A stretch of 64,000 bases of DNA from Patescibacteria group bacterium (GTDB lineage Bacteria > Patescibacteriota > Saccharimonadia > CAILAD01 > JADZBC01), in contig JBPOIL010000001.1 of NCBI GenBank assembly GCA_052034495.1, forward strand, positions 14 through 64,013, in the 5' to 3' direction. The translations under genes were made by a program, and so were the position numbers. The notes under the pieces were generated by a model. It was not told the DNA's origin. It saw nothing but the letters and a program-made list of their open reading frames with translations, and searched no databases. Below, piece by piece: positions 26,492 through 37,500 of this stretch; within the stretch, counting starts at the first letter, position 1, and each line of letters opens with the position of its first letter.

Positions 26492-26860
26492 TTACACTAT
26501 ATTGACAACATAATTAGCAATGGAGTAGGCCAGCAATGAAACGACGAGGCCAATCACTGCATATAATATGGTGTCCTTAGCGGCCGTGGTGCCTTTTTGG
26601 TCGCCACCAGACAAAACGTAGCGCAACCCGCCAATCACAATCATGATTACAGATATAATGCCTATGGCCAGTATTAACGTGTTCGTGATCGTGCCAATAG
26701 AGCCCATGAGGTCTGTTGTGCCGAAGTTGCCATCATTTGCACATTCTGCCCCTGCAGCTGCGCCGCCGCTCAAATCACAAGCAGCTAGCGCCCTCTGGGC
26801 GTTTAATGCCACTGAGAGCGCTAAGCCTGATGCTACAGATGTAACTCGCGCTAATCGCAT
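26492..26860 (-). CDS. VirB2/TrbC-like T4SS pilin paralog 1
   Basis: Signal peptide + 2 TM. Conserved block GGLRYVLSGGDQKGTTAAKDTILYAVIGLVV shared with paralog 2. Confidence 0.6.
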   Translation of the reverse strand: MRLARVTSVASGLALSVALNAQRALAACDLSGGAAAGAECANDGNFGTTDLMGSIGTITNTLILAIGIISVIMIVIGGLRYVLSGGDQKGTTAAKDTILYAVIGLVVSLLAYSIANYVVNIV

Positions 26861-26868
26861 AGAACTTC

Positions 26869-27222
26869 TTAGAGCTGGTTGATTACGAAGTTCATGATGG
26901 AGTAGGAAAGGAGCGCAACGACCACACCGATGATGGCGTACAGAATGGTGTCCTTGGCAGCCGTAGTGCCTTTTTGGTCGCCGCCCGAGAGAACGTAGCG
27001 GAAGCCACCGATAATCAACATGATTACAGATACGATACCAATGATGGTAATCATCAAGTTCGTGATTCCTGCAATTGAGTCAGTTAGGCTCGTTGTCTCT
27101 AGGTTGCCTTGTGCTGCATTGATGCCTTCTTGCGCATCAGGGTTAGCGGCAAGCGCAGTACCCGCAGACAACATTACCCCTGTTAAGCCCAAGCTAACCT
27201 TTGTGGTGATTTCTTTTACCAT
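26869..27222 (-). CDS. VirB2/TrbC-like T4SS pilin paralog 2
   Basis: Same architecture. Block GGFRYVLSGGDQKGTTAAKDTILYAIIGVVV. Confidence 0.6.
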   Translation of the reverse strand: MVKEITTKVSLGLTGVMLSAGTALAANPDAQEGINAAQGNLETTSLTDSIAGITNLMITIIGIVSVIMLIIGGFRYVLSGGDQKGTTAAKDTILYAIIGVVVALLSYSIMNFVINQL

Positions 27223-27294
27223 TTTAATAAATTCTCCTTAAACAATTATGCTTAGATTGTATATGACTCCACCTGGTTTGACAACAAAAACTTA

Positions 27295-27666
27295 CTAGGA
27301 AGCAGGGAAGAGACCGATCACATAATTAACTATGGCGTAGGCAAGCATAGTAATGACCAGGCCGATTACTGAATAGAGAATGGTGTCCTTGGCCTTTGTG
27401 GCCTTGCTAGAATCACCAGCAGACAACGAGTACATAATGCCACCCACAATAATCATAATGACCGATATAATACCCGCAATGGTAAGGAGCGTGCTCGTGA
27501 TAGTGCTAATTACAGTTCCGGCGCTATCGGGCGTTCCGCTTAGGCTAGTAATCTTCAGGCTAGTGGGAATAGGGGTGGGGGCAGGATCTTCTGCCAAAGC
27601 CACGCCACGCCAGAGTAGGGTGGTGGCGCCTGCGGCTAGGTACTTAAGGGTCTTTGGAATTTTCAT
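27295..27666 (-). CDS. VirB2/TrbC-like T4SS pilin paralog 3 (diverged)
   Basis: Block GGIMYSLSAGDSSKATKAKDTILYSVIGLVI. Trimmed to MKIPKTL, a signal-peptide-like start. TATAAT lies 7 nt upstream of the ATG. Confidence 0.5.
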   Translation of the reverse strand: MKIPKTLKYLAAGATTLLWRGVALAEDPAPTPIPTSLKITSLSGTPDSAGTVISTITSTLLTIAGIISVIMIIVGGIMYSLSAGDSSKATKAKDTILYSVIGLVITMLAYAIVNYVIGLFPAS

Positions 27667-27710
27667 AACTGCATTATAGACTAGTTTGCCCAAAAGTATA
27701 AAGACCAAGA

Positions 27711-27986
27711 TTACAGGCCGAATGCGGCCATGACAAACTGACCAATCACTCCTGCCAGGATTGCCAGGATAAGCCCACCAATCGCGTTGGTAATCGTCTT
27801 CTTGGCCTTTTCTTGGCCCTGGGGATTACCGGCAGACATAGATAGCTGAATGCCTCCAATCACGATGAATATCACCGCCAATGAGCCTGCGAGCATCAGG
27901 GCAAATAGACCAATGTTGTTAATCAAGTCCATAATGCTGCCATAGTCTGCGTCTGTCCCGACCTTTACGTCCTCAAACAAGTTCAT
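27711..27986 (-). CDS. pilin-like small membrane protein paralog 4 (no signal peptide)
   Basis: Block IGGIQLSMSAGNPQGQEKAKKTITNAIGGLILAIL; lacks the N-terminal leader. Confidence 0.45.
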   Translation of the reverse strand: MNLFEDVKVGTDADYGSIMDLINNIGLFALMLAGSLAVIFIVIGGIQLSMSAGNPQGQEKAKKTITNAIGGLILAILAGVIGQFVMAAFGL

Positions 27987-27995
27987 ACATACTCC

Positions 27996-28349
27996 CTATG
28001 CAATGTTAATTCCGAATATACCCATTATGGCACGAAGACTTATGAGAAGTATAAGAGCCACAATGGCGTTTATGAGTCGGCTCTTTGCGGCCTTGAGTCT
28101 ATCTGGACTGTCTCCAGATGTGATCATTTGCACCCCTGACACAACAATCATAACCACAAAGAGCGCTCCGAATAGTCCAACCATCATATTCGCAATAATG
28201 CCAATCAACTCCATTGGCTGGTCCGTACAGAGGTTTTCTGGCAAAAACTCCCCACAGTTATCTACTGTGGCGGCCCTTGCGCTCGAAGGCAGGGCCAAGA
28301 GCAGGGTAGCTAATAATGCAGTCTTAATGTTGGCGATCTTCATCTTCAT
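27996..28349 (-). CDS. VirB2/TrbC-like T4SS pilin paralog 5
   Basis: Signal peptide MKMKIANIKTALLATLLLALPSSARA + 2 TM. Block VSGVQMITSGDSPDRLKAAKSRLINAIVALIL. Confidence 0.5.
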   Translation of the reverse strand: MKMKIANIKTALLATLLLALPSSARAATVDNCGEFLPENLCTDQPMELIGIIANMMVGLFGALFVVMIVVSGVQMITSGDSPDRLKAAKSRLINAIVALILLISLRAIMGIFGINIA

Positions 28350-28438
28350 TAGTCTTAGAGTTTAGTTGCTCTTATTGAGGTACTTATAAGCGTAAGCTCT
28401 GTACCTAGCTGTGACTATTATACTATAATGACCACATA

Positions 28439-30658
28439 ATGCCTCGACTTATTAAAAATACTGCGTCTCGCCGCTGGTCCCTGCTAAAGGCTGGGCTATT
28501 TGTGGTGTTCGTGGCCGTGTTTGTAAGCGCGCTAGTCAGCCCATCAAAAGCCAGCGCATCGCAGTCTGCAAGATTCGAGGACGCTTCCCATATAAAAATA
28601 AAGGATAGTGGCATGGATACCTTTACACTGCAAGAAGTGCAGGATGCAGCCACAGATGCCCAAATTGATGCCCAAAGCTCGGGGGAAGATGGCACGGTAT
28701 TAAAGGCTGTGTACTTCTTTAGCCCTGCGGCCAACCTTGGTAAGAGGATATGGGAAGCGGGATGTCAGGGGTGTTATGACTACTACTTCAGCCCAACACT
28801 TACCGTGCAAGCTGGCTTCCCAGTTTATGTAGGAGCTGGCGAAAATAAGCGCCTAATGTACCCGCTCTACGAAATCGCCCCTCGAGCTGGCGTTCGCTGG
28901 GATAAAGATCTTAAGCCCCCTATGTCTGAACCAGCAGTGATGACTTTTAACTACGAGGAAAACGGCACCAAAACACCAGAAAAGAAAGATGGCAAAGTAA
29001 TCTGCTCCATGGAGCAATGGATAAACTGCTACGAAAACACTAATGGGGGGAGGCTAATTACGTCCTCTACCTTCACAGACGCAGAGAGAGACAAACTAGA
29101 CGATATAATAAGCAAGACCAAGTCTACGTTTAAAAGCACGCAGAACGCGATCAAGGACAGTTGTGATGGCGGAGCTTTGGGCTTCATTCTCTGCCCCATT
29201 CAAGACGCCATGCTCAAGGTCGTAGAAACACTGAATGGCTGGCTTGCGAATATACTAGATATTAATACGAGCGGGTTTCAGAACGACACACTGCAAAGGG
29301 CTAGCCAGAATATACTCGGCCTAGCAAACGCCATATATGCGTTAATATTCTTGGTGATAATATTCGCTAACGGCCTAAGTATTGGTATAGACAGCTACAC
29401 CCTCAAAAAGATGGTACCGCGGCTCGTTGCCGCTATAATCCTTTCGCAGTTCGCATACTTCCTTACAGGGGCATTTATAGAGTTTGGAAATGTACTGGGC
29501 CGAACTGTTACGGCATTCTTTGTGCAGCTCGTACCCGAGAGTGCGAATGGCGTTGGACTAGGAGGTGCAGTTACTCTGGGGGTTCTAACTGGCGTTGCAA
29601 TACTACTAATCCTGGTGATGCTGCTAGTCATTATAGTTGCCTTCTTGGTGGTACTGGGCGTGTTGGCACTACGTTGGGCCGCCCTATACGCCCTGATACT
29701 TGTTGCTCCGCTTGCTTTTGCGGCCATGGTGCTGCCAAACACCAAGAAGCTATTCGACTTATGGTGGAAGAATCTCCTGAAGCTGGTAATGATGTTCCCG
29801 ATTATTATGGCTATCACAGCGGGTGCAACATTCCTAAGCACGGTTATGATAGCCGAAGACGCACCGCTTGTTATTCAGATTATTGGAGCGCTCTTGCCGT
29901 TTATTGGATTCTTGATGGTTCCGAAGGCGTTCAAGTGGAGCGGAAGCTTAATGGCGGCAACCGGCGGAAAGGTTTCGGACTGGACTGCAGGAAAGGCCAA
30001 AGGTACATACCAGAAGAGTGCAAAGGAAGGCAGTATAGCAAAAGCGAAAGGTAAAGGTCTTCAAATCGCCGGCGGAGCAGCGACCAAGATGCCAGTATTC
30101 GGAGGGGCTGCTGGAGGGGCTCTGTTGAAACGAGGGGCTGCGGCACGTGGTGCTGCTTCAAGTGCAGAGAAGGATTATTTCAAGAACTTTTCAGATGAGG
30201 ACCTTGGAAAGTATATAGCGGCAACAAAAGGAAAGGGGAAACTCGCGGGCGTGGCGAAAGGAGACCTGGATCGACGGATTAGTGAAAAGGCCAAAGACCA
30301 AAGAGAATACTTTAGCCGTACGGGCACTGTGGACACAGTTGGGGCAGCAAAACTAGAAAAATTACAGGCGTTCAAGCTCGGGGAGGTCGGAGTCGATGCC
30401 GACGAGACTCGAGAGGGAACGTATTACGATCCATCAAGAGGGGTGGTTACAGCCACCGTAAAGCTCGACCCAACAACCGACAATGTCGAGGTGAAGGGCA
30501 GTATTGTTGATATATCTGGGGCAACTGTGGTGGGAGTACCAACTCCACCAGGAGGTACGCCCGTGTCGACCAACCTCCCTAAATCGGGATCAGTCCCTCC
30601 TGGTTCTGGGCCAAAGTATTCAGGCTACGATCCCTCTAAGCGATCTAGCTTCTTATAA
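28439..30658 (+). CDS. VirB6/TrbL-like polytopic T4SS membrane protein with large N-terminal extracytoplasmic domain
   Basis: Signal/TM, ~280-aa Cys-containing ectodomain, 6-7 TM helices, then a Gly/Lys-rich C-terminal tail. Confidence 0.45.
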   Translation: MPRLIKNTASRRWSLLKAGLFVVFVAVFVSALVSPSKASASQSARFEDASHIKIKDSGMDTFTLQEVQDAATDAQIDAQSSGEDGTVLKAVYFFSPAANLGKRIWEAGCQGCYDYYFSPTLTVQAGFPVYVGAGENKRLMYPLYEIAPRAGVRWDKDLKPPMSEPAVMTFNYEENGTKTPEKKDGKVICSMEQWINCYENTNGGRLITSSTFTDAERDKLDDIISKTKSTFKSTQNAIKDSCDGGALGFILCPIQDAMLKVVETLNGWLANILDINTSGFQNDTLQRASQNILGLANAIYALIFLVIIFANGLSIGIDSYTLKKMVPRLVAAIILSQFAYFLTGAFIEFGNVLGRTVTAFFVQLVPESANGVGLGGAVTLGVLTGVAILLILVMLLVIIVAFLVVLGVLALRWAALYALILVAPLAFAAMVLPNTKKLFDLWWKNLLKLVMMFPIIMAITAGATFLSTVMIAEDAPLVIQIIGALLPFIGFLMVPKAFKWSGSLMAATGGKVSDWTAGKAKGTYQKSAKEGSIAKAKGKGLQIAGGAATKMPVFGGAAGGALLKRGAAARGAASSAEKDYFKNFSDEDLGKYIAATKGKGKLAGVAKGDLDRRISEKAKDQREYFSRTGTVDTVGAAKLEKLQAFKLGEVGVDADETREGTYYDPSRGVVTATVKLDPTTDNVEVKGSIVDISGATVVGVPTPPGGTPVSTNLPKSGSVPPGSGPKYSGYDPSKRSSFL

Positions 30659-30666
30659 GAAAAATT

Positions 30667-31500
30667 ATGAGTCAATATAAAGTCCCCCAAAACGTAGAAG
30701 CAGAAGACACCATCCTGGGTCCGTTGACGATTAAACAGTTCATATACGTCGTCATCGCAATAGGGTGGGGCTTTCTGTGCTGGCGTGTGTTTGGCGTAGC
30801 TCCAATCATAGCCATTTTTCTAATACTGCCAATTTCTGGGCCACTCTTAGCACTCGGGCTCATCCGCCGCGAAGGCCAGAGCTTCGAAACGTACTTTATC
30901 GCCATGATTCGCTTCGTGCTTGTGCCCCGCAAGCGTACCTGGCTCAAAGACCAGTCAAAGGTGGTCATTAAGGAGGAGGTTAAAAAGCCAGAGTTAGAGG
31001 AGGTAAAAATGCCGAGCGCCACTGAAGTCCGCGGAGAACTGCGCAAACTTGCCACCATAGTCGACAGCCGCGGCCGCATACCAAAGGGCTTGGAGCTTCA
31101 ATCTGCCGATGCAAACGTGGCCGGCAGCGCGCTCAGTCAGCGTGTAGTGACTCCCGAAGCCACCCAGGTAGCGTCAGAAATAATTGCTACTAAGGTGTCG
31201 GCACCCCGCACGGACATGCTCGACATGCAGCACAGCCCACAGGCCGTAGCAGTAGGGGAGCTCCTAACTACGAGTGGTGCGAATGTAAAGGCACAGGCCA
31301 TAGCGAACATGCAGAAGGCTGCTACTGCTCCTACAAGTCACCCTGCCAGCCAAGCACAAGCACCTTCGCAAGCACCAGCGCAAAATGCTATACTACAAAG
31401 AGCTGCCGAGAGTAGTGGCGTAGTGTCTGTACAGCAACTTGCTGACCAGGTTAGCCGCCATAATGTTCTCCAGCAGGGGCAAAGCACGCAAGTTCGCTAG
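30667..31500 (+). CDS. PrgI/VirB3-like T4SS membrane protein
   Basis: N-terminal LGPLTIKQFIYVVIAIGWGFLCW + second TM, the 2-TM PrgI-family architecture. Located directly upstream of VirB4. Confidence 0.5.
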   Translation: MSQYKVPQNVEAEDTILGPLTIKQFIYVVIAIGWGFLCWRVFGVAPIIAIFLILPISGPLLALGLIRREGQSFETYFIAMIRFVLVPRKRTWLKDQSKVVIKEEVKKPELEEVKMPSATEVRGELRKLATIVDSRGRIPKGLELQSADANVAGSALSQRVVTPEATQVASEIIATKVSAPRTDMLDMQHSPQAVAVGELLTTSGANVKAQAIANMQKAATAPTSHPASQAQAPSQAPAQNAILQRAAESSGVVSVQQLADQVSRHNVLQQGQSTQVR

Positions 31501-31542
31501 CTCCGTTATTTTGTCAGTAACGCACTAGGTATAATCGCAAGT

Positions 31543-32613
31543 ATGGCTCAGCCAACTCAACCAAATCCACAAATTACCGACCAACAGCGACAGGCCTTGG
31601 CCTCTGTAACGCCGCCCAAAAACGTCAAAGATCAACGCGCCAGCACACAGAACCACTTAATGTTTTCGGAAATACGCGACAACATCGTAATGATGCGCGA
31701 CGGGTCATTACGTATGGTAATTATGGCCTCGGCGGTTAACTTTGACCTTAAGAGCTCCAGAGAGCAAGACGCGATTGAATACGCATACCAAGGCTTCCTG
31801 AACGGCCTGCACTTCCCAGTGCAAATTATCATTCGTTCGCGCAAAATCGACCTAGACAACTATCTTGGCAAGCTCGAGGGACTGCAGGCAGAGCAAGAAA
31901 ACCAACTCCTGGCAGGCCTAATGGAAGACTATATATTTAACATCCGCGGCTTGCTCGAAGACGTCAACATTATGGCAAAGTCATTCTACATAGTTGTGCC
32001 ATATTACATTCAGGTGGCCAGCAAAGAGAACATTGTTAGCAAAATAACTGGGCTCATGAAGCAGAACGAAGACGTAGTGGAGAGTAGTGCGGACTTTGAA
32101 AAACATAAAGGAGAGCTTATTCAGCGTACCAACATTGTGGCTCAAGGCTTAGCCCAGATCGGCATACGCGCTGCCGTACTGACCACCCAGGAGCTGATTG
32201 AGCTGTACTATGGCTCGTACAATATCGATGAGGCGCAAAACCAACCCCTCGTAGGAATGGATGAAATAAATTCGCCAGTCGTTGGCAGGAGTGGTGCGCC
32301 GCTTGTACCGCACGGGCCAGCGCAAAAGGTTGCGGAGCCCGAAGACATGTTTGCCGCCGCCCGCAAAGCAGCCGCAACGCATGCACCAGTGGCCCAACAG
32401 GCTCAACACGTTGCTGCCGTACCGCAAGCCGCACCAGCAATCCAGCAGGCGCCAAATCAAGCCGCTACTACATCCGTACAGCAACCAGGTCCGCCAGTGA
32501 CTCAGCCTGTACCGACTGCTCCAGCCCAGCAGCAAGTTTCTGCTGGCCAGACGGTACAGATTCCTCGCCCCGCAGCAGCGCCTCAGCAGCCACCCCAGGG
32601 AGGGCCTCAGTAA
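31543..32613 (+). CDS. VirB4/PrgJ N-terminal domain-like protein with Pro/Gln-rich C-terminal tail (apparent N-terminal part of a split VirB4)
   Basis: Block IRDNIVMMRDGSLRMVIMASAVNFDLKSSREQDAIEYAYQGFLNGLHFPVQIIIRSRKIDLDNYL resembles the VirB4/CagE/TrbE N-domain. It ends in a ~120-aa low-complexity tail. Its stop overlaps the next ATG (TAATG). Confidence 0.45.
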   Translation: MAQPTQPNPQITDQQRQALASVTPPKNVKDQRASTQNHLMFSEIRDNIVMMRDGSLRMVIMASAVNFDLKSSREQDAIEYAYQGFLNGLHFPVQIIIRSRKIDLDNYLGKLEGLQAEQENQLLAGLMEDYIFNIRGLLEDVNIMAKSFYIVVPYYIQVASKENIVSKITGLMKQNEDVVESSADFEKHKGELIQRTNIVAQGLAQIGIRAAVLTTQELIELYYGSYNIDEAQNQPLVGMDEINSPVVGRSGAPLVPHGPAQKVAEPEDMFAAARKAAATHAPVAQQAQHVAAVPQAAPAIQQAPNQAATTSVQQPGPPVTQPVPTAPAQQQVSAGQTVQIPRPAAAPQQPPQGGPQ

Positions 32614-34505
32614 TGGCTGTTAAAAAACCAAGGGTTGACCCTAGAGTTCAGGCAGAGATTGATCGCCGGGCCGCAATCCAGGCCGAAGCCGAGAAGGTTT
32701 ACCGCGAAGGCGTAGTAAGTTTACGGGATATCATCGCCCCGTCATCAATTGAGATTGTAAACGACCACATTAAGATCGGGAAGCGCTTAGCGCGGACGCT
32801 GTTTGTGTTTGGCTACCCCCGCACGCTCTTTACTGGCTGGTTGTCGCCACTTATTAATGTCGATGAAATTATCGACATTAGCCTCAACATTATCCCGGTG
32901 GAGAGCAAAATTGTACTCGATAATCTCAAAAAGAAGGTAGGGCAGCTAGAAGCTAACTACACTATCAACCAAGAAAAGGGCAAGGTGCGCGACCCGGGGC
33001 TAGAGGCTGCCATCCAGGATGCTGAGGAACTCCGCGACAGCTTACAGGTGGGTTCTGACAGGTTTTTCCGACTTGGATTGTATATAACCATATATGGTAA
33101 GGATATGGATGAACTAAACCTTGTGGGTAAAAAGATTGAAAGCATGTTAGGCCAAAGCCTCATCTATACCAAGCCGGCAACGATTCAAATGGAGCAGGGC
33201 TTTAATTCAACTATCCCAATGGGCCTGGATCAGCTTAATGTATACCGGAACATGAACACAGGCGCGCTGAGCTCAACCTTCCCATTCACTACGGCCGAAC
33301 TCAGTCAGGAAGACGGCATTATGTATGGTATTAACCGTCACAATAATGGGCTTGTGATTTTCGACAGGTTTAGCCTGGAGAACGCTAACATGACAGTGTT
33401 TGCCAAGTCCGGTGCTGGTAAGAGTTTTGCGGTTAAGTTAGAGTGCTTGCGATCTCTCATGATGGGAACAGAAGTGGTTATTATAGACCCCGAGAATGAA
33501 TATAAAACGCTTTGTGATGCAGTGGGGGGCAGCTACCTGCACTTATCTCTCGCCAGCAATACCCGCGTTAATCCATTTGATTTGCCTCAAACAGTGGACC
33601 CAGAAGAGGCAGACAATGCCCTGCGAGCAAACATAATCATGCTCCACGGACTGCTCAGACTGATGGCTGGGGACATGAGTCCTACAGAGGAAGCCGACAT
33701 GGATATCGCCCTGATCAACACTTACGCCAAAAAAGGTATTACCAACGATCCGCTCACACACCGTGCCCAGCCACCCGTAATGGCCGATTTGTATAATGAG
33801 TTACTATCTATGCCGGGGACCGGGCAAGGCCTCGCCGCCCGCTTGCGCCGTTTTACTGAAGGAACGTTCTCGGGTATCTTCTCGCAGCAGTCCAACGTAC
33901 AACTTAACAACCGGTTTGTGGTGTTCAACATTCGCGACTTAGAAGATGAATTGCGACCCATCGGTATGTACATTGTGCTCAATTATATCTGGAACCGTGT
34001 TAAAACCGACCGCCGTAAACGAATCCTTGTGGTAGACGAAGCCTGGCAGCTCATGCAATACCAGGACTCTGCTATGTTCTTGTTCTCAATCGCTAAGCGT
34101 GCCCGTAAGTACTTCCTTGGCCTCACAACCATATCCCAGGACGTAGAGGACTTCCTAAGTACTCGGCTAGGTCGTGCAATTGTAAATAACTCTTCCTTGC
34201 AACTCCTCCTCAAGCAAAATCCAGCAGCCGTAGACATTGTAGCTGACACGTTTAAGCTAACGAGCGAAGAGAGTAGTCGGCTAAGTCAGTTCCCAGTAGG
34301 GGAGGGTCTATTCTTTGCCGGACTCAGCCACATTATTCTACGCATCTTGGCCTCACCAATGGAGACTCAACTAATCAGCACGAACCCACAGCACATGCTC
34401 GATCAGCAACGCGCCCAGCAAGAAGCCGTGGACGCAGCCGTAGCCGCCGCGCCACCACAGCCAGAAGCTAACTCGGCGACTCCAGCAGACACAAGCCAAG
34501 CGTAA
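32613..34505 (+). CDS. virB4: VirB4/TrbE/PrgJ-family T4SS ATPase
   Basis: ARTLFVFGYP motif, Walker A FAKSGAGKS, Walker B ILVVDEAWQLM; 630 aa. Confidence 0.85.
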   Translation: MAVKKPRVDPRVQAEIDRRAAIQAEAEKVYREGVVSLRDIIAPSSIEIVNDHIKIGKRLARTLFVFGYPRTLFTGWLSPLINVDEIIDISLNIIPVESKIVLDNLKKKVGQLEANYTINQEKGKVRDPGLEAAIQDAEELRDSLQVGSDRFFRLGLYITIYGKDMDELNLVGKKIESMLGQSLIYTKPATIQMEQGFNSTIPMGLDQLNVYRNMNTGALSSTFPFTTAELSQEDGIMYGINRHNNGLVIFDRFSLENANMTVFAKSGAGKSFAVKLECLRSLMMGTEVVIIDPENEYKTLCDAVGGSYLHLSLASNTRVNPFDLPQTVDPEEADNALRANIIMLHGLLRLMAGDMSPTEEADMDIALINTYAKKGITNDPLTHRAQPPVMADLYNELLSMPGTGQGLAARLRRFTEGTFSGIFSQQSNVQLNNRFVVFNIRDLEDELRPIGMYIVLNYIWNRVKTDRRKRILVVDEAWQLMQYQDSAMFLFSIAKRARKYFLGLTTISQDVEDFLSTRLGRAIVNNSSLQLLLKQNPAAVDIVADTFKLTSEESSRLSQFPVGEGLFFAGLSHIILRILASPMETQLISTNPQHMLDQQRAQQEAVDAAVAAAPPQPEANSATPADTSQA

Positions 34506-34540
34506 TGAGCTATAATATAGCTATATAAAACCAGGAATCA

Positions 34541-37500
34541 ATGGCTCAAAACACAGGACGTGACCCAAATCTAGACGAAGGTCAAGCTTACGGCGGGACC
34601 CCCACTCAGCAGAGCGGGGGAACTAGCATGGCGCGTGATATTGCCCAGGCAGGTAAGGATGTTGCAAAAAGTACCGGCAAAAAGTCGCCTGGGAACGAAA
34701 AGCTCCCCGACAGTCCTTATGTAAAAGGTGGCGGTAACGGCGAGGACAGTCTACCGTCGCGTGGTGCCAAAGCTGCTCAAACCATGGCAGGCAAGGGCGG
34801 CACAGACCCTACGACCGGCCAGGCAGGGCGAGCCACCCAGGCGGCCCTAGAGGCAACAGGAACCGCCAAAGATAAGGATGAGCAAGGAGTCGCCGAAAAG
34901 GCCGCCCGTAAAGCTGGTGGTAAAGCTGCTCGCGCAGGAGTAGATGCTTTCACTGGTAGTGATCAGTTGGGGCAAGTTGCGGATCAAGCGGTTCAAAGTA
35001 TTGACCCGAAAAAGGCAGCCAAAAAGGGAGCGAAGGCGGCCGTCGCTACTATAGGTATTGGAATCGCACTGATAGTCACCCCGCTGCTTTTACTACTGTT
35101 AATTATCGGATACGCATTTACCCACCCCTGGGATGCTGCTAAGGAGGTTATTACAAATGCTAGCTACCGACGGTTCGTAGCAAGCGTGGCAGGCTTGGCA
35201 GTTGGCCCAGGAAGCAGCGCGAATTCAATAGCCGCTATTACCGGCCCCATGCCATACGAGGTGGACTATAGACCTGGCTCTGCTATTGCGGCCCCGGCTG
35301 GCCCTAAGCCAGAGCCAGGGACGCTCGAAGATGCCATCTCCAAAATTGACTACGAAAAGTCCAGGAACCGGTTTAAAGGTGACTACTGCGAGTACAGAGT
35401 GATAACCAAGCCAGTGGTGTCCTACGACGGCCAGCGTCGTAACGTCATCAATAAAGTTGTAGATGCAAAAGGTAAGCCCGTAGAGATATCATCCCCCGCC
35501 GTCTACCAGTGTATTCTAGAACAATACCCAGTTATGGAGACCATGATGCGTAGCGAGCAAGCTCGTAAGATTAACAAGCAAATGCAAGTTAACTTCTCCT
35601 ATGCTGAAAAGGAAGATTCTAAGGCTCTTGAAGGCAAATCCAAAGAGGAAGTAAAAGAAGCACTACACAAAAAGTCTCTGACGCGTTTATGGAGCAACTC
35701 GGACAGCCCTTACGGCAATAGTACCGAGTGTGTAGAGGACTTTAAGCCTACAGGCCCCAAGGTGGATAGGGCGATTAAAAAGGTAATCAACAACTTAGCC
35801 TGTGGTGCTCAACCGGAAAAGATCGATGTCGACTACAAGGTAGAGGAAATACCTAAATCACTCGACACCGACTCAGCCAAGTATGAAAAACGACTAGTCG
35901 AATATACCAAGGCCGCTTGTGTTTTCTATAAGAAGCTCAATGAGGACAAGGATGCTATAAAAAAGTATCAGCTAAACCGAGCGAAGTCATCCGCCCGAGC
36001 TGGATTCCAGGCCCTAACCTTGGCTGATACCGGCGTAGCGGGCGAAATATCAACCGAGGAACTTAACGGCGACTTCTATAAAATCTCAAACTTTGCTTCC
36101 TCGAGGGCCTATAAACAAGAGGTGAATGGAAGCTCGGATGGCGTGCAAGTAGACCCAGAGGCTATACCGACCACAGTACTTGGTCTTACGAAGAACTACT
36201 TCGAAGGCCTGGAGGACAATGGTAGAATCAAAGACTCACTCGCTGAAATGTGCAAGGATCAGGACAAAATAGGCGACGGTGGTTTCACTGGTTTCGCAAG
36301 CTTTATAAGTGGCTTGTTTGGCGGGGGTGGGCCATCAAAAGAAGAGCTTGCTAAGGATATTGATGATGCACTTACGTACCTAAAAAAGGACATTCAGAAG
36401 AACAATTCTCAATACTTTACCTCAGCAGAAAAAGTAACCCTAGAAGACATTATCGTACGTACGGTCATGATTACCTCTAACGCCAGTAACAGCGGTGTAG
36501 AAGATGGCCCAGATAACTTTAACCGGATGATAGTAGGTGCGAAAAACTCATCATACATACATACCATGTCGCTCCTAGGTGGTAGCTACCAGACTGAACC
36601 CGAGGCGGCTCAAGCGAGCATCCAAGTTGAACAATACAAGCGACTTCGAGATAAACAGGGTGGTATAGCCTATAGGCTTTGGAATAAGGATAATCCACGC
36701 TCGTTGGCAAGTCGGCTCGCGGCTGAATCCACAGCGACACCTTCGCAGATCACTGAAAAAACTTCACGTTATGCGCTTAATATGCTTAACCCGATTCGGG
36801 CCTTTGCCGAGGTAAACTCTATGATTACCTATGTGGGCTATGGCGAAACTAACCGGGCCATTGCGGCCGCGGACGACGATAGGGCGTACTGGAAGATCGA
36901 CACAGCCGGAGTTCAAGCTACGGAAGATGCTGTGCAGAATGCCCGCTACATCGAGGCGTTAAAGAAGAAGGTCGCGGACCCTGCTTACACTAATGATGAA
37001 ACTATTAAGGCAGTTGCGGCTTCATTTGCAGCGTGGGACAAGTGCATGGATACATACTATCCGGATATGCAGACCCTTGATGATAATAAAGATGACAGAG
37101 CATGTCAGATTATGCGAAAGACCACCGGAAGTAGAGCTATCGCAAGCAACTACGCTGTATCACCCAATAAGTATAAACTCCCTACTGGAAATATCCGCTT
37201 AGCTGCACTTAGCCCAACTTCCGAAAAAGCACTGGCCCGTAAATACGCTGTGTACAAAGGCCATGTAAACTTCTATAGCGCTTGGGCACGGCTTAGCAAG
37301 ACCGAAAAGGATGAAGAAATGTATGCCAATAGTGGACCATCGGATGAATCAAATGGGGCTGCCGACCAGGTTGCTACTGGCAACACGGGACCCAACGGTA
37401 GTGTTAAGTCTGATAAGCCAACGGCTTGTACGAGTGGGCCGCAAGAAGGAACGGTGGAACTATCTAAGTATATAATGAGTAAGTTCGGAGCAAGCAGCAT

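Follow-up and report, generated by a model that had tools for sequence, protein, structure and literature searches.

Conjugative plasmids of the staphylococcal pGO1/pSK41 type and related Bacillota plasmids (MPF_FATA, pGO1 subclass) encode a small soluble protein, TrsD or TraD, directly upstream of a VirB4 ATPase of about 630-670 aa in their type IV secretion systems (T4SS). TrsD was the T4SS component found most often in Patescibacteria by Quinonero-Coronel et al. (2025, Microb Genom; PMC12102498), with 2,272 homologues, 1,664 of them adjoining virB4. The passages on TrsD in that survey stated a remote homology to the N-terminal portion of VirB4, assigned the protein no function, and listed the homologue in Southlakia epibionticum as essential, citing transposon sequencing (Tn-seq). 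Here we analyzed such a pair of open reading frames (ORFs), ORF1 and ORF2, in a 64,000-nt stretch of a Patescibacteria group bacterium (contig JBPOIL010000001.1, assembly GCA_052034495.1), called the window below. Our conclusion, held with a probability of roughly 80%, is that the two genes constitute a genuine and conserved two-gene VirB4, and that their separation is due neither to a sequencing error nor to a frameshift.

The pair in the window is the same gene pair as the published TrsD-VirB4 pairs of Patescibacteria. It lies in the same type of chromosomal cluster (pilins, VirB6-like protein, PrgI, TrsD-like protein, VirB4 and cell-wall hydrolases), adjoining dnaA and dnaN. In view of the 2025 account of TrsD (PMC12102498), the two-gene VirB4 here is an instance of an arrangement already published, although the pair was not presented as a split VirB4 in the TrsD passages of that paper. 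The ORF1 of the window differs from the published pairs in its 111-aa Ala/Pro/Gln tail, found here only in near relatives. TrsD is not named in the main text of Guglielmini 2014, and a 2025 review of nomenclature is silent on both TrsD and a split VirB4. The 'TraD' of the pELF plasmid paper was set aside as irrelevant, a VirD4 homologue being meant there.

In a Staphylococcus aureus plasmid of the pSK41/pGO1 type, traD (227 aa, matching the TrsD model with E=1.2e-67) is followed by the gene of a 670-aa VirB4, TraE. The break point is similar to that in the window: TraE matches the CD1110 VirB4 model from position 183, and ORF2 from position 173. A VirB3-like gene lies upstream of the pair, as in the window, and this layout is common to S. 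aureus, L. sakei and B. thuringiensis plasmids. On the other hand, the pGO1-type systems are plasmid-borne and conjugative and have relaxases, whereas the cluster in the window is chromosomal and from a clade presumed to have undergone co-option for epibiotic growth. The TrsD proteins (219-227 aa) lack the low-complexity tail of ORF1, and the traD-traE junction in S. aureus is a 20-nt gap instead of an overlap.

The gene pair and its junction

ORF1 (31543-32613, forward strand, as are all features of the pair) encodes 356 aa. From the ORF list, the hidden Markov model (HMM) matches and the relatives, it was interpreted as a TrsD-like or 'TraC-like' protein, the putative equivalent of the N-terminal module of VirB4 in free-standing form. 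It is composed of a globular alpha/beta domain of about 220 aa (residues ~26-245; 31618-32277) and a low-complexity tail rich in Ala, Pro and Gln (residues 246-356; 32278-32610), predicted to be disordered from its composition and from the relatives. ORF2 (32613-34505) encodes 630 aa, which by HMM matches and similarity to PDB 4ag5 represent the VirB4 body, that is, the remaining N-terminal region and the ATPase domain.

The ORF1 stop codon TAA (32611-32613) and the ORF2 start codon ATG (32613-32615) share one base. The resulting TAATG overlap (32611-32615) has the geometry expected for translational coupling. A Shine-Dalgarno (SD)-like sequence, GGGAGGG (32598-32604), lies within the final codons of ORF1, 9 nt 5' of the ORF2 ATG.

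The original prediction, made from the sequence of the window, had both ORFs and their junction right. It was also right about the ATPase core in ORF2, with the Walker A motif GAGKS at residues 267-271 (33411-33425) and the Walker B region VVDEAW at residues 473-478 (34029-34046). Two details needed correction. The low-complexity stretch, put at about 120 aa, measured 111 aa, and the motif ARTLFVFGYP, placed at the start of ORF2, is located at residues 60-69 (32790-32819).

Conservation of the separate genes

Upstream of its ATG, the reading frame of ORF2 has no stop codon for 116 codons, as far as a TGA at 32262-32264. Judging from the window alone, the two ORFs might be one gene interrupted by a 1-nt indel in the tail, and comparative evidence was therefore needed. 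A comparison of related loci had been proposed with the original prediction. Our survey covered 88 loci in which both genes were detected, from about 80 species, mostly Saccharibacteria from the GTDB species set, together with other fetched loci. The genes were separate in 85 of the 88. The exception was one fused gene, counted at three loci (L005-L007).

The 1-nt stop/start overlap was present in 58 of the 88 loci, and the remainder had small gaps or overlaps. SD-like 4-mers were found 4-18 nt before the start of the ORF2 homologue at 54 of 69 distinct junctions (78%), compared with 8% of the control windows.

The possibility that a single VirB4 gene has been broken by a 1-nt assembly or sequencing error in the GC-rich tail was considered against these results. 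One indel would indeed join both ORFs through the open upstream frame, and fused homologues with a comparable linker are known in another clade. Against this, an independent Logan assembly contained an identical ORF1 and genes of equal lengths (739, 277, 356, 630 and 1092 aa). In 13 close relatives the tail was kept in the ORF1 frame, with its C-terminus and stop codon conserved, and about 80 species have separate genes with the SD motif before ORF2. The tail itself lacks homopolymer runs of 5 or more, and its single tandem repeat is weak, with 1.9 copies. The comparative evidence thus excludes an indel for practical purposes, and we regard an error of this kind as extremely improbable.

Programmed -1 frameshifting in the tail, or slippage during termination and reinitiation, would yield a full-length fused VirB4 alongside the two proteins or in their place. 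Its attraction is that, relative to ORF1, ORF2 is read in the -1 frame, which stays open throughout the tail; 65 of the 88 loci have this frame relation. In 10 other loci, the relation was +1, and in 13 it was frame 0 with a stop codon between the genes. A frameshift would need a fixed frame, and the variation among species therefore disfavors a conserved one. A slippery heptamer of the form X_XXY_YYZ was sought in 32265-32612, and none was found. Neither a conserved slippery site nor a conserved frame relation was thus seen. In most species the tail is only about 19 aa long, leaving almost no space for a frameshift site. The peptide read from the tail in the ORF2 frame is rich in Cys, Arg and Ser, unlike the linker of any homologue, and the conserved SD motif suggests that ORF2 is initiated independently. 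Frameshifting in place of, or on top of, separate translation is very unlikely on this evidence.

The original prediction had left a choice between expression as two polypeptides and a frameshift, sequencing error or programmed event. The comparative evidence supported the former and gave no support to the latter.

The low-complexity tail of ORF1

The tail consists of 26 Ala, 20 Pro, 20 Gln and 12 Val among its 111 aa. The G+C content of its DNA is 64%, compared with 48% for the DNA of the globular domain. Screening for homopolymer runs of 5 or more found none, and a tandem-repeat scan found a single weak 11-mer in 1.9 copies and no real array.

In the 13 close relatives, the tail preserved the ORF1 frame and stop codon. 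Both ends were conserved (PVVGRxG...AEPEDMFAAAR at the start and PGQ...GGxQ followed by the stop codon at the end), and the middle was hypervariable, with in-frame indels. Most other species have only about 19 aa after the domain, and tails of 45-111 aa were present in only seven surveyed relatives, the nearest ones included. The original prediction had located the split at this low-complexity linker. This did not hold, as most of the approximately 80 related species end ORF1 about 19 aa past the globular domain. For the same reason, the split appears to be independent of the Pro/Gln-rich tract and seemingly older than it.

Divergence was calculated against the nearest surveyed relative (L001, 79% identity in the domain). 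Synonymous divergence (dS) was saturated, so that only the nonsynonymous values (dN) are usable. These were 0.09-0.13 for the domains (0.13 for that of ORF1) and 0.52 for the tail. The long tail is a fast-evolving extension specific to this sublineage, probably disordered and under weak constraint.

A recent gene fission on its way to decay, with ORF1 left as a pseudogene remnant, would be another way to arrive at two ORFs. The unusual low-complexity tail is the sole point for it. The ORF1 domain is 41-79% identical across the surveyed species, and its dN of 0.13 against L001 stands beside a saturated dS. The family is ancient, with members in Bacillota, Actinomycetota and Archaea, and the Southlakia homologue is listed as essential in the TrsD passages of PMC12102498. 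The probability of a decaying fission is negligible.

Low-complexity extensions enriched in Ala, Pro, Gln, Ser or Gly were also seen on several other proteins of the cluster (within 30667-31500, 30400-30658, 34380-34505 and 34541-35000). In PrgI, such sequence continues for about 180 aa beyond a 90-aa domain. It also forms the C-termini of the VirB6-like protein and of ORF2, and the N-terminus of a 1092-aa protein encoded downstream is rich in Gly, Ala and Lys. The tail of ORF1 thus seems to be part of a lineage-wide habit and nothing special to the split.

The N-terminal region missing from ORF2

ORF2 scored 369.8 bits with the NCBIfam model NF045971 (conju_CD1110 VirB4), above the cut-off of 325, and the match covered positions 173-730 of 752. 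With the full-length VirB4 model NF045975, the match started at ORF2 residue 35 and spanned positions 293-893 of 894. In the VirB4_CagE model, ORF2 residue 75 corresponded to position 257. The same N-terminal shortfall was observed with other full-length VirB4/TraC models. ORF2 is without the first ~150-170 positions of the full-length models, and a complete N-terminal region is absent from the polypeptide.

The remainder of the protein is typical. The C-terminal half matched the VirB4 C-terminal domain of PDB 4ag5 (E=1.2e-53), and the ATPase domain matched residues 446-733 of TrwK of plasmid R388 (E=1.7e-4). Pfam matches were P-loop_TraG (96 bits), AAA_10 and DUF87. With a P-loop ATPase domain, a score above the equivalog cut-off and a T4SS cluster around it, ORF2 belongs to the VirB4 family.

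A weak match (E=0.008) was also noted between ORF2 residues 121-205 and the C-terminal end (positions 395-477 out of 477) of an NCBIfam model, 'SCO6880 family protein'. This hints that the SCO6880-type proteins of actinomycetes may be another separately encoded piece of the N-terminal region of VirB4.

Resemblance of ORF1 to the missing region

Residues 25-177 of ORF1 matched positions 5-167 (of 201) of the NCBIfam TrsD model NF041427 (25.3 bits, E=1.1e-5). The curated cut-off was not reached, and ORF1 was therefore classified, by sequence, as a remote homologue of TrsD/TraD outside the NCBIfam TrsD subfamily. Pairwise BLASTP between ORF1 and TrsD/TraD was marginal, the similarity being barely detectable. 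In the reciprocal direction, an HMM of the ORF1 family matched the gene that lies between PrgI and VirB4 on B. thuringiensis pBMB57 (1.5e-18), TrsD of L. sakei (4.1e-13) and TraD of S. aureus (3.1e-7).

With NF045975 (VirB4_plasma), ORF1 aligned to positions 97-236 of 894 (E=5.8e-5). ORF2 occupies positions 293-893 of the same model, and the two therefore cover complementary and collinear parts of a VirB4. This suggested that the N-terminal part missing from ORF2 is the one encoded by ORF1. The VirB4-type N-terminal block ascribed to ORF1 in the original prediction was borne out by this weak match and by the fold comparisons below.

A precomputed 'TraC-like' label (PF26593) is attached to an identical protein (P0001) and to nearly all listed relatives. 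ORF1 gave no match to the local Pfam library, with or without the tail and up to E<=10; this library seemingly does not contain the PF26593 model. A word-indexed search returned 2,253 matches to the ORF1 family, and an exhaustive search returned 2,065 cluster representatives at E <= 0.001. With a single exception, the best 150 of the representatives were stand-alone proteins of 175-480 aa. Independent homologues of the N-terminal domain had been named in advance as a sign that ORF1 is a protein family of its own, and these 2,065 representatives show that such a large stand-alone family exists. Its existence appears compatible with a relationship to VirB4, as the family resembles the VirB4 N-terminal region by sequence and is found fused to the VirB4 body in another clade of Patescibacteria.

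An AlphaFold2 model of ORF1 residues 1-245, built with 47 family members, was confident (mean predicted local distance difference test, pLDDT, 83.5). In a Foldseek search of the PDB, the top 14 matches of this model were R388 TrwK/VirB4 chains with probability 1.0, and the next match had a probability of 0.28. TrwK was the clear best match in both fold searches with the ORF1 domain. The model thus predicts a fold similar to the N-terminal domain of VirB4, as represented by TrwK (PDB 7o41, 7o42 and 8rtb), the protein that was also matched by the ATPase domain of ORF2. Unlike the pair in the window, TrwK is one chain of 823 aa from a diderm system with an outer-membrane core complex, and its sequence similarity to the ORF1 part is undetectable.

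Fused and other natural arrangements

P0216 (898 aa) is a natural fusion of the two parts. Residues 1-228 are ORF1-like (34% identity), residues ~230-300 form a linker rich in Ala, Pro and Gly, and residues 322-890 are ORF2-like (51% identity). Residues 3-882 align in a single stretch to positions 92-893 of NF045975. Five contigs, obtained in three sequencing runs, carry the gene, with a PrgI gene upstream of it. A search with P0216 returned at least 65 fused clusters of 860-910 aa, 56-100% identical, and those with a source name carried mostly Berkelbacteria or Patescibacteria labels. The linkers of the fused proteins are Ala/Pro-rich and 45-82 aa long. In the counterpart of ARTLFVFGYP in the fused homologues, F357, T360, Y361, P362 and R363 are invariant.

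The Berkelbacteria-type fused VirB4 therefore has the same two parts in the same order, with PrgI upstream, and its linker appears similar in composition to the ORF1 tail. It differs from the window in being a single polypeptide, with no stop codon or internal start signal.

In a complete Berkelbacteria genome (GenBank CP066695.1; L097:3029-5749), VirB4 was annotated as 582 aa from an internal ATG, leaving 955 nt apparently non-coding. The true ORF is 906 aa long and includes the ORF1-like module and the linker. The 582-aa protein (P0334), a candidate for a split relative within the fused clade, was rejected as a mis-called internal start of this ORF.

The module was also found on the VirB3 side. 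On a plasmid of Embleya sp. (NZ_CP108778.1; L009:1865-2911), it is C-terminal in a 349-aa 'PrgI family protein' (ORF1-family HMM 5.9e-16, BLASTP 2e-10). On a plasmid of Halobaculum sp. (NZ_CP134950.1; L096:1817-2827), a 337-aa ORF upstream of VirB4 contains it (HMM 4.5e-12). This ORF has two N-terminal hydrophobic segments, as in VirB3, and no Pfam PrgI match. In both plasmids the module is separate from the VirB4 body, and in Embleya a gene of the XF1762 family intervenes. The module thus occurs free, fused to the VirB4 body, or fused on the VirB3 side, the archaeal case being a probable one of the last kind.

VirB3-VirB4 fusion proteins are reported for some MPF_T systems (PMC4027160, PMC12102498, in their passages on these fusions). 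Like the Embleya and Halobaculum cases, they indicate that the boundaries between VirB3, the VirB4 N-terminus and the VirB4 body are evolutionarily flexible. In the window, unlike these fusions, VirB3, the module and the VirB4 body are all separate genes, and the part of the 2025 survey dealing with such fusions reports none in Patescibacteria. The complementarity of the break points, the fused Berkelbacteria-type clade and the fusions on the VirB3 side are absent from those portions of the literature on this arrangement that were available to us, and no novelty is claimed for them.

A broader idea, put forward tentatively and more likely wrong than right, is that the ORF1-type module works as an adaptor in its own right, placed between VirB3 and the VirB4 motor and, over evolution, either attached to one of these partners or left free. 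The free state would be that of the Saccharibacteria and the pGO1-type plasmids. The module would be fused to the VirB4 body in the Berkelbacteria-type Patescibacteria, and presumably in canonical VirB4 as well, and to VirB3/PrgI in the actinomycete plasmid and probably the archaeal one. The tail of 45-111 aa on the free form, with its conserved ends, could have a role of its own, for example in tethering or regulating T4SS assembly.

Proposed operation of the two genes

In the scheme that we propose, ORF1 and ORF2 would be co-transcribed. Scanning for terminators and promoters detected none between the two genes, with site counts at the chance level. Translation of ORF2 would start from an SD site of its own within the final codons of ORF1 and would probably be coupled to the termination of ORF1 (UAAUG), giving roughly equal amounts of both proteins. 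ORF1 would supply, as a soluble protein of its own, the N-terminal module of VirB4, and ORF2 the rest. The two polypeptides would associate non-covalently to rebuild a complete VirB4. The ORF1 module would probably be at the interface with the VirB3-like PrgI, encoded just upstream. The analysis shows the structure and conservation of the gene pair, its relationships by homology and fold, a ribosome-binding signal and a lack of frameshift signals. The association, the stoichiometry and the VirB3 contact are suggested by the fusion patterns and the synteny.

ORF1 might instead be an independent accessory protein, for example chaperone-like or regulatory, which functions outside VirB4 and resembles its N-terminus only by ancestry or fold. 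This would agree with the very large stand-alone family, and with scores far below the curated TrsD and VirB4 cut-offs. It does not account well for the fact that the region resembled by ORF1 and TrsD is exactly that absent from ORF2 and TraE. The fused proteins have the parts in the same order and align collinearly to the full-length VirB4 model, the synteny of ORF1 with the VirB4 body is strict, and TrwK was the clear top match in both fold searches. We consider an accessory role of this kind unlikely.

Several results weigh against a two-gene VirB4 and lower our confidence in it. The TrsD score of ORF1 was 25 bits with a curated cut-off of 200, and that with NF045975 was only 21 bits. The sequence link between ORF1 and VirB4 is weak outside the fused clade. 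The template modelling score (TM-score) between ORF1 and TrwK was modest (0.43). The fold match came without residue positions, and the assignment to the N-terminal part of TrwK was made through collinearity with the fused proteins and NF045975. When the ORF1 family was compared by hhalign with an enterococcal PrgJ-like VirB4 and with F-plasmid TraC, the probabilities were not significant (0.1% and 6.6%, respectively), the aligned positions being N-terminal in both. A profile search of PDB sequences with the ORF1 family gave no meaningful match and did not reach the N-terminal region of TrwK; a profile of the fused family reached only the ATPase part. An AlphaFold2 model of the fused P0216 (53-sequence alignment) had a mean pLDDT of 62 and a predicted TM-score (pTM) of 0.43, with values below 50 in the linker and middle, and did not show how the module packs against the body. 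That ORF1 and ORF2 associate physically, and in a 1:1 ratio, is what we infer, and a rare frameshifted fused product is formally possible, given that the ORF2 frame is open across the whole tail.

The practical use of the result is chiefly in annotation: such pairs are not to be 'repaired' as frameshifts or flagged as pseudogenes, and the small ORF is better labeled as a TrsD-like VirB4 N-terminal module than as a hypothetical protein. The result also offers a testable idea of what TrsD-type proteins may do, namely supply in trans, and probably where VirB3 is contacted, the N-terminal piece that a short VirB4 lacks. Epibiotic growth reportedly requires the T4SS of Saccharibacteria, and a two-piece motor is relevant to structural and genetic work on it. 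Current understanding is not changed in a major way, and the long tail is a minor feature.

Genomic context

The window holds a complete Saccharibacteria-type T4SS cluster at 26492-41214, made up of pilins, a VirB6/TrbL-like protein, PrgI, ORF1, ORF2, a 1092-aa protein and a lysozyme/CHAP hydrolase. Five pilin (VirB2-like) genes are divergent from the rest (26492-28349, reverse strand), and all five matched Pfam T4SS_pilin with E values of 6.5e-10 to 4.6e-13. They are followed on the forward strand by the gene of a VirB6/TrbL-like polytopic membrane protein (28439-30658), which had no local Pfam match and was assigned from a precomputed PF19590 TrbL_3 label on the identical gene of another locus (L091).

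Directly 5' of ORF1 is the gene of PrgI, a VirB3-like membrane protein that is extended at its C-terminus by a long low-complexity stretch (30667-31500, forward strand). The Pfam PrgI match (E=3e-15) covers residues 5-91, and a hydrophobic segment starts at residues 15-50. The order PrgI-ORF1-ORF2 is conserved in related loci.

Downstream of ORF2, the gene of the 1092-aa protein (34541-37819, forward strand) is conserved in its synteny. The protein gave no match to the local Pfam and NCBIfam models. Precomputed labels in four related loci (L001, L003, L004 and L091) were VanY or VldE, and the protein may be a cell-wall-remodelling component of the system.

The reverse-strand genes recF (41487-42548), dnaN (42552-43649) and dnaA (43968-45365) lie directly beyond the cluster, which therefore adjoins the replication origin. 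This position matches what PMC12102498 reports, in its passages on cluster location, for some Patescibacteria.

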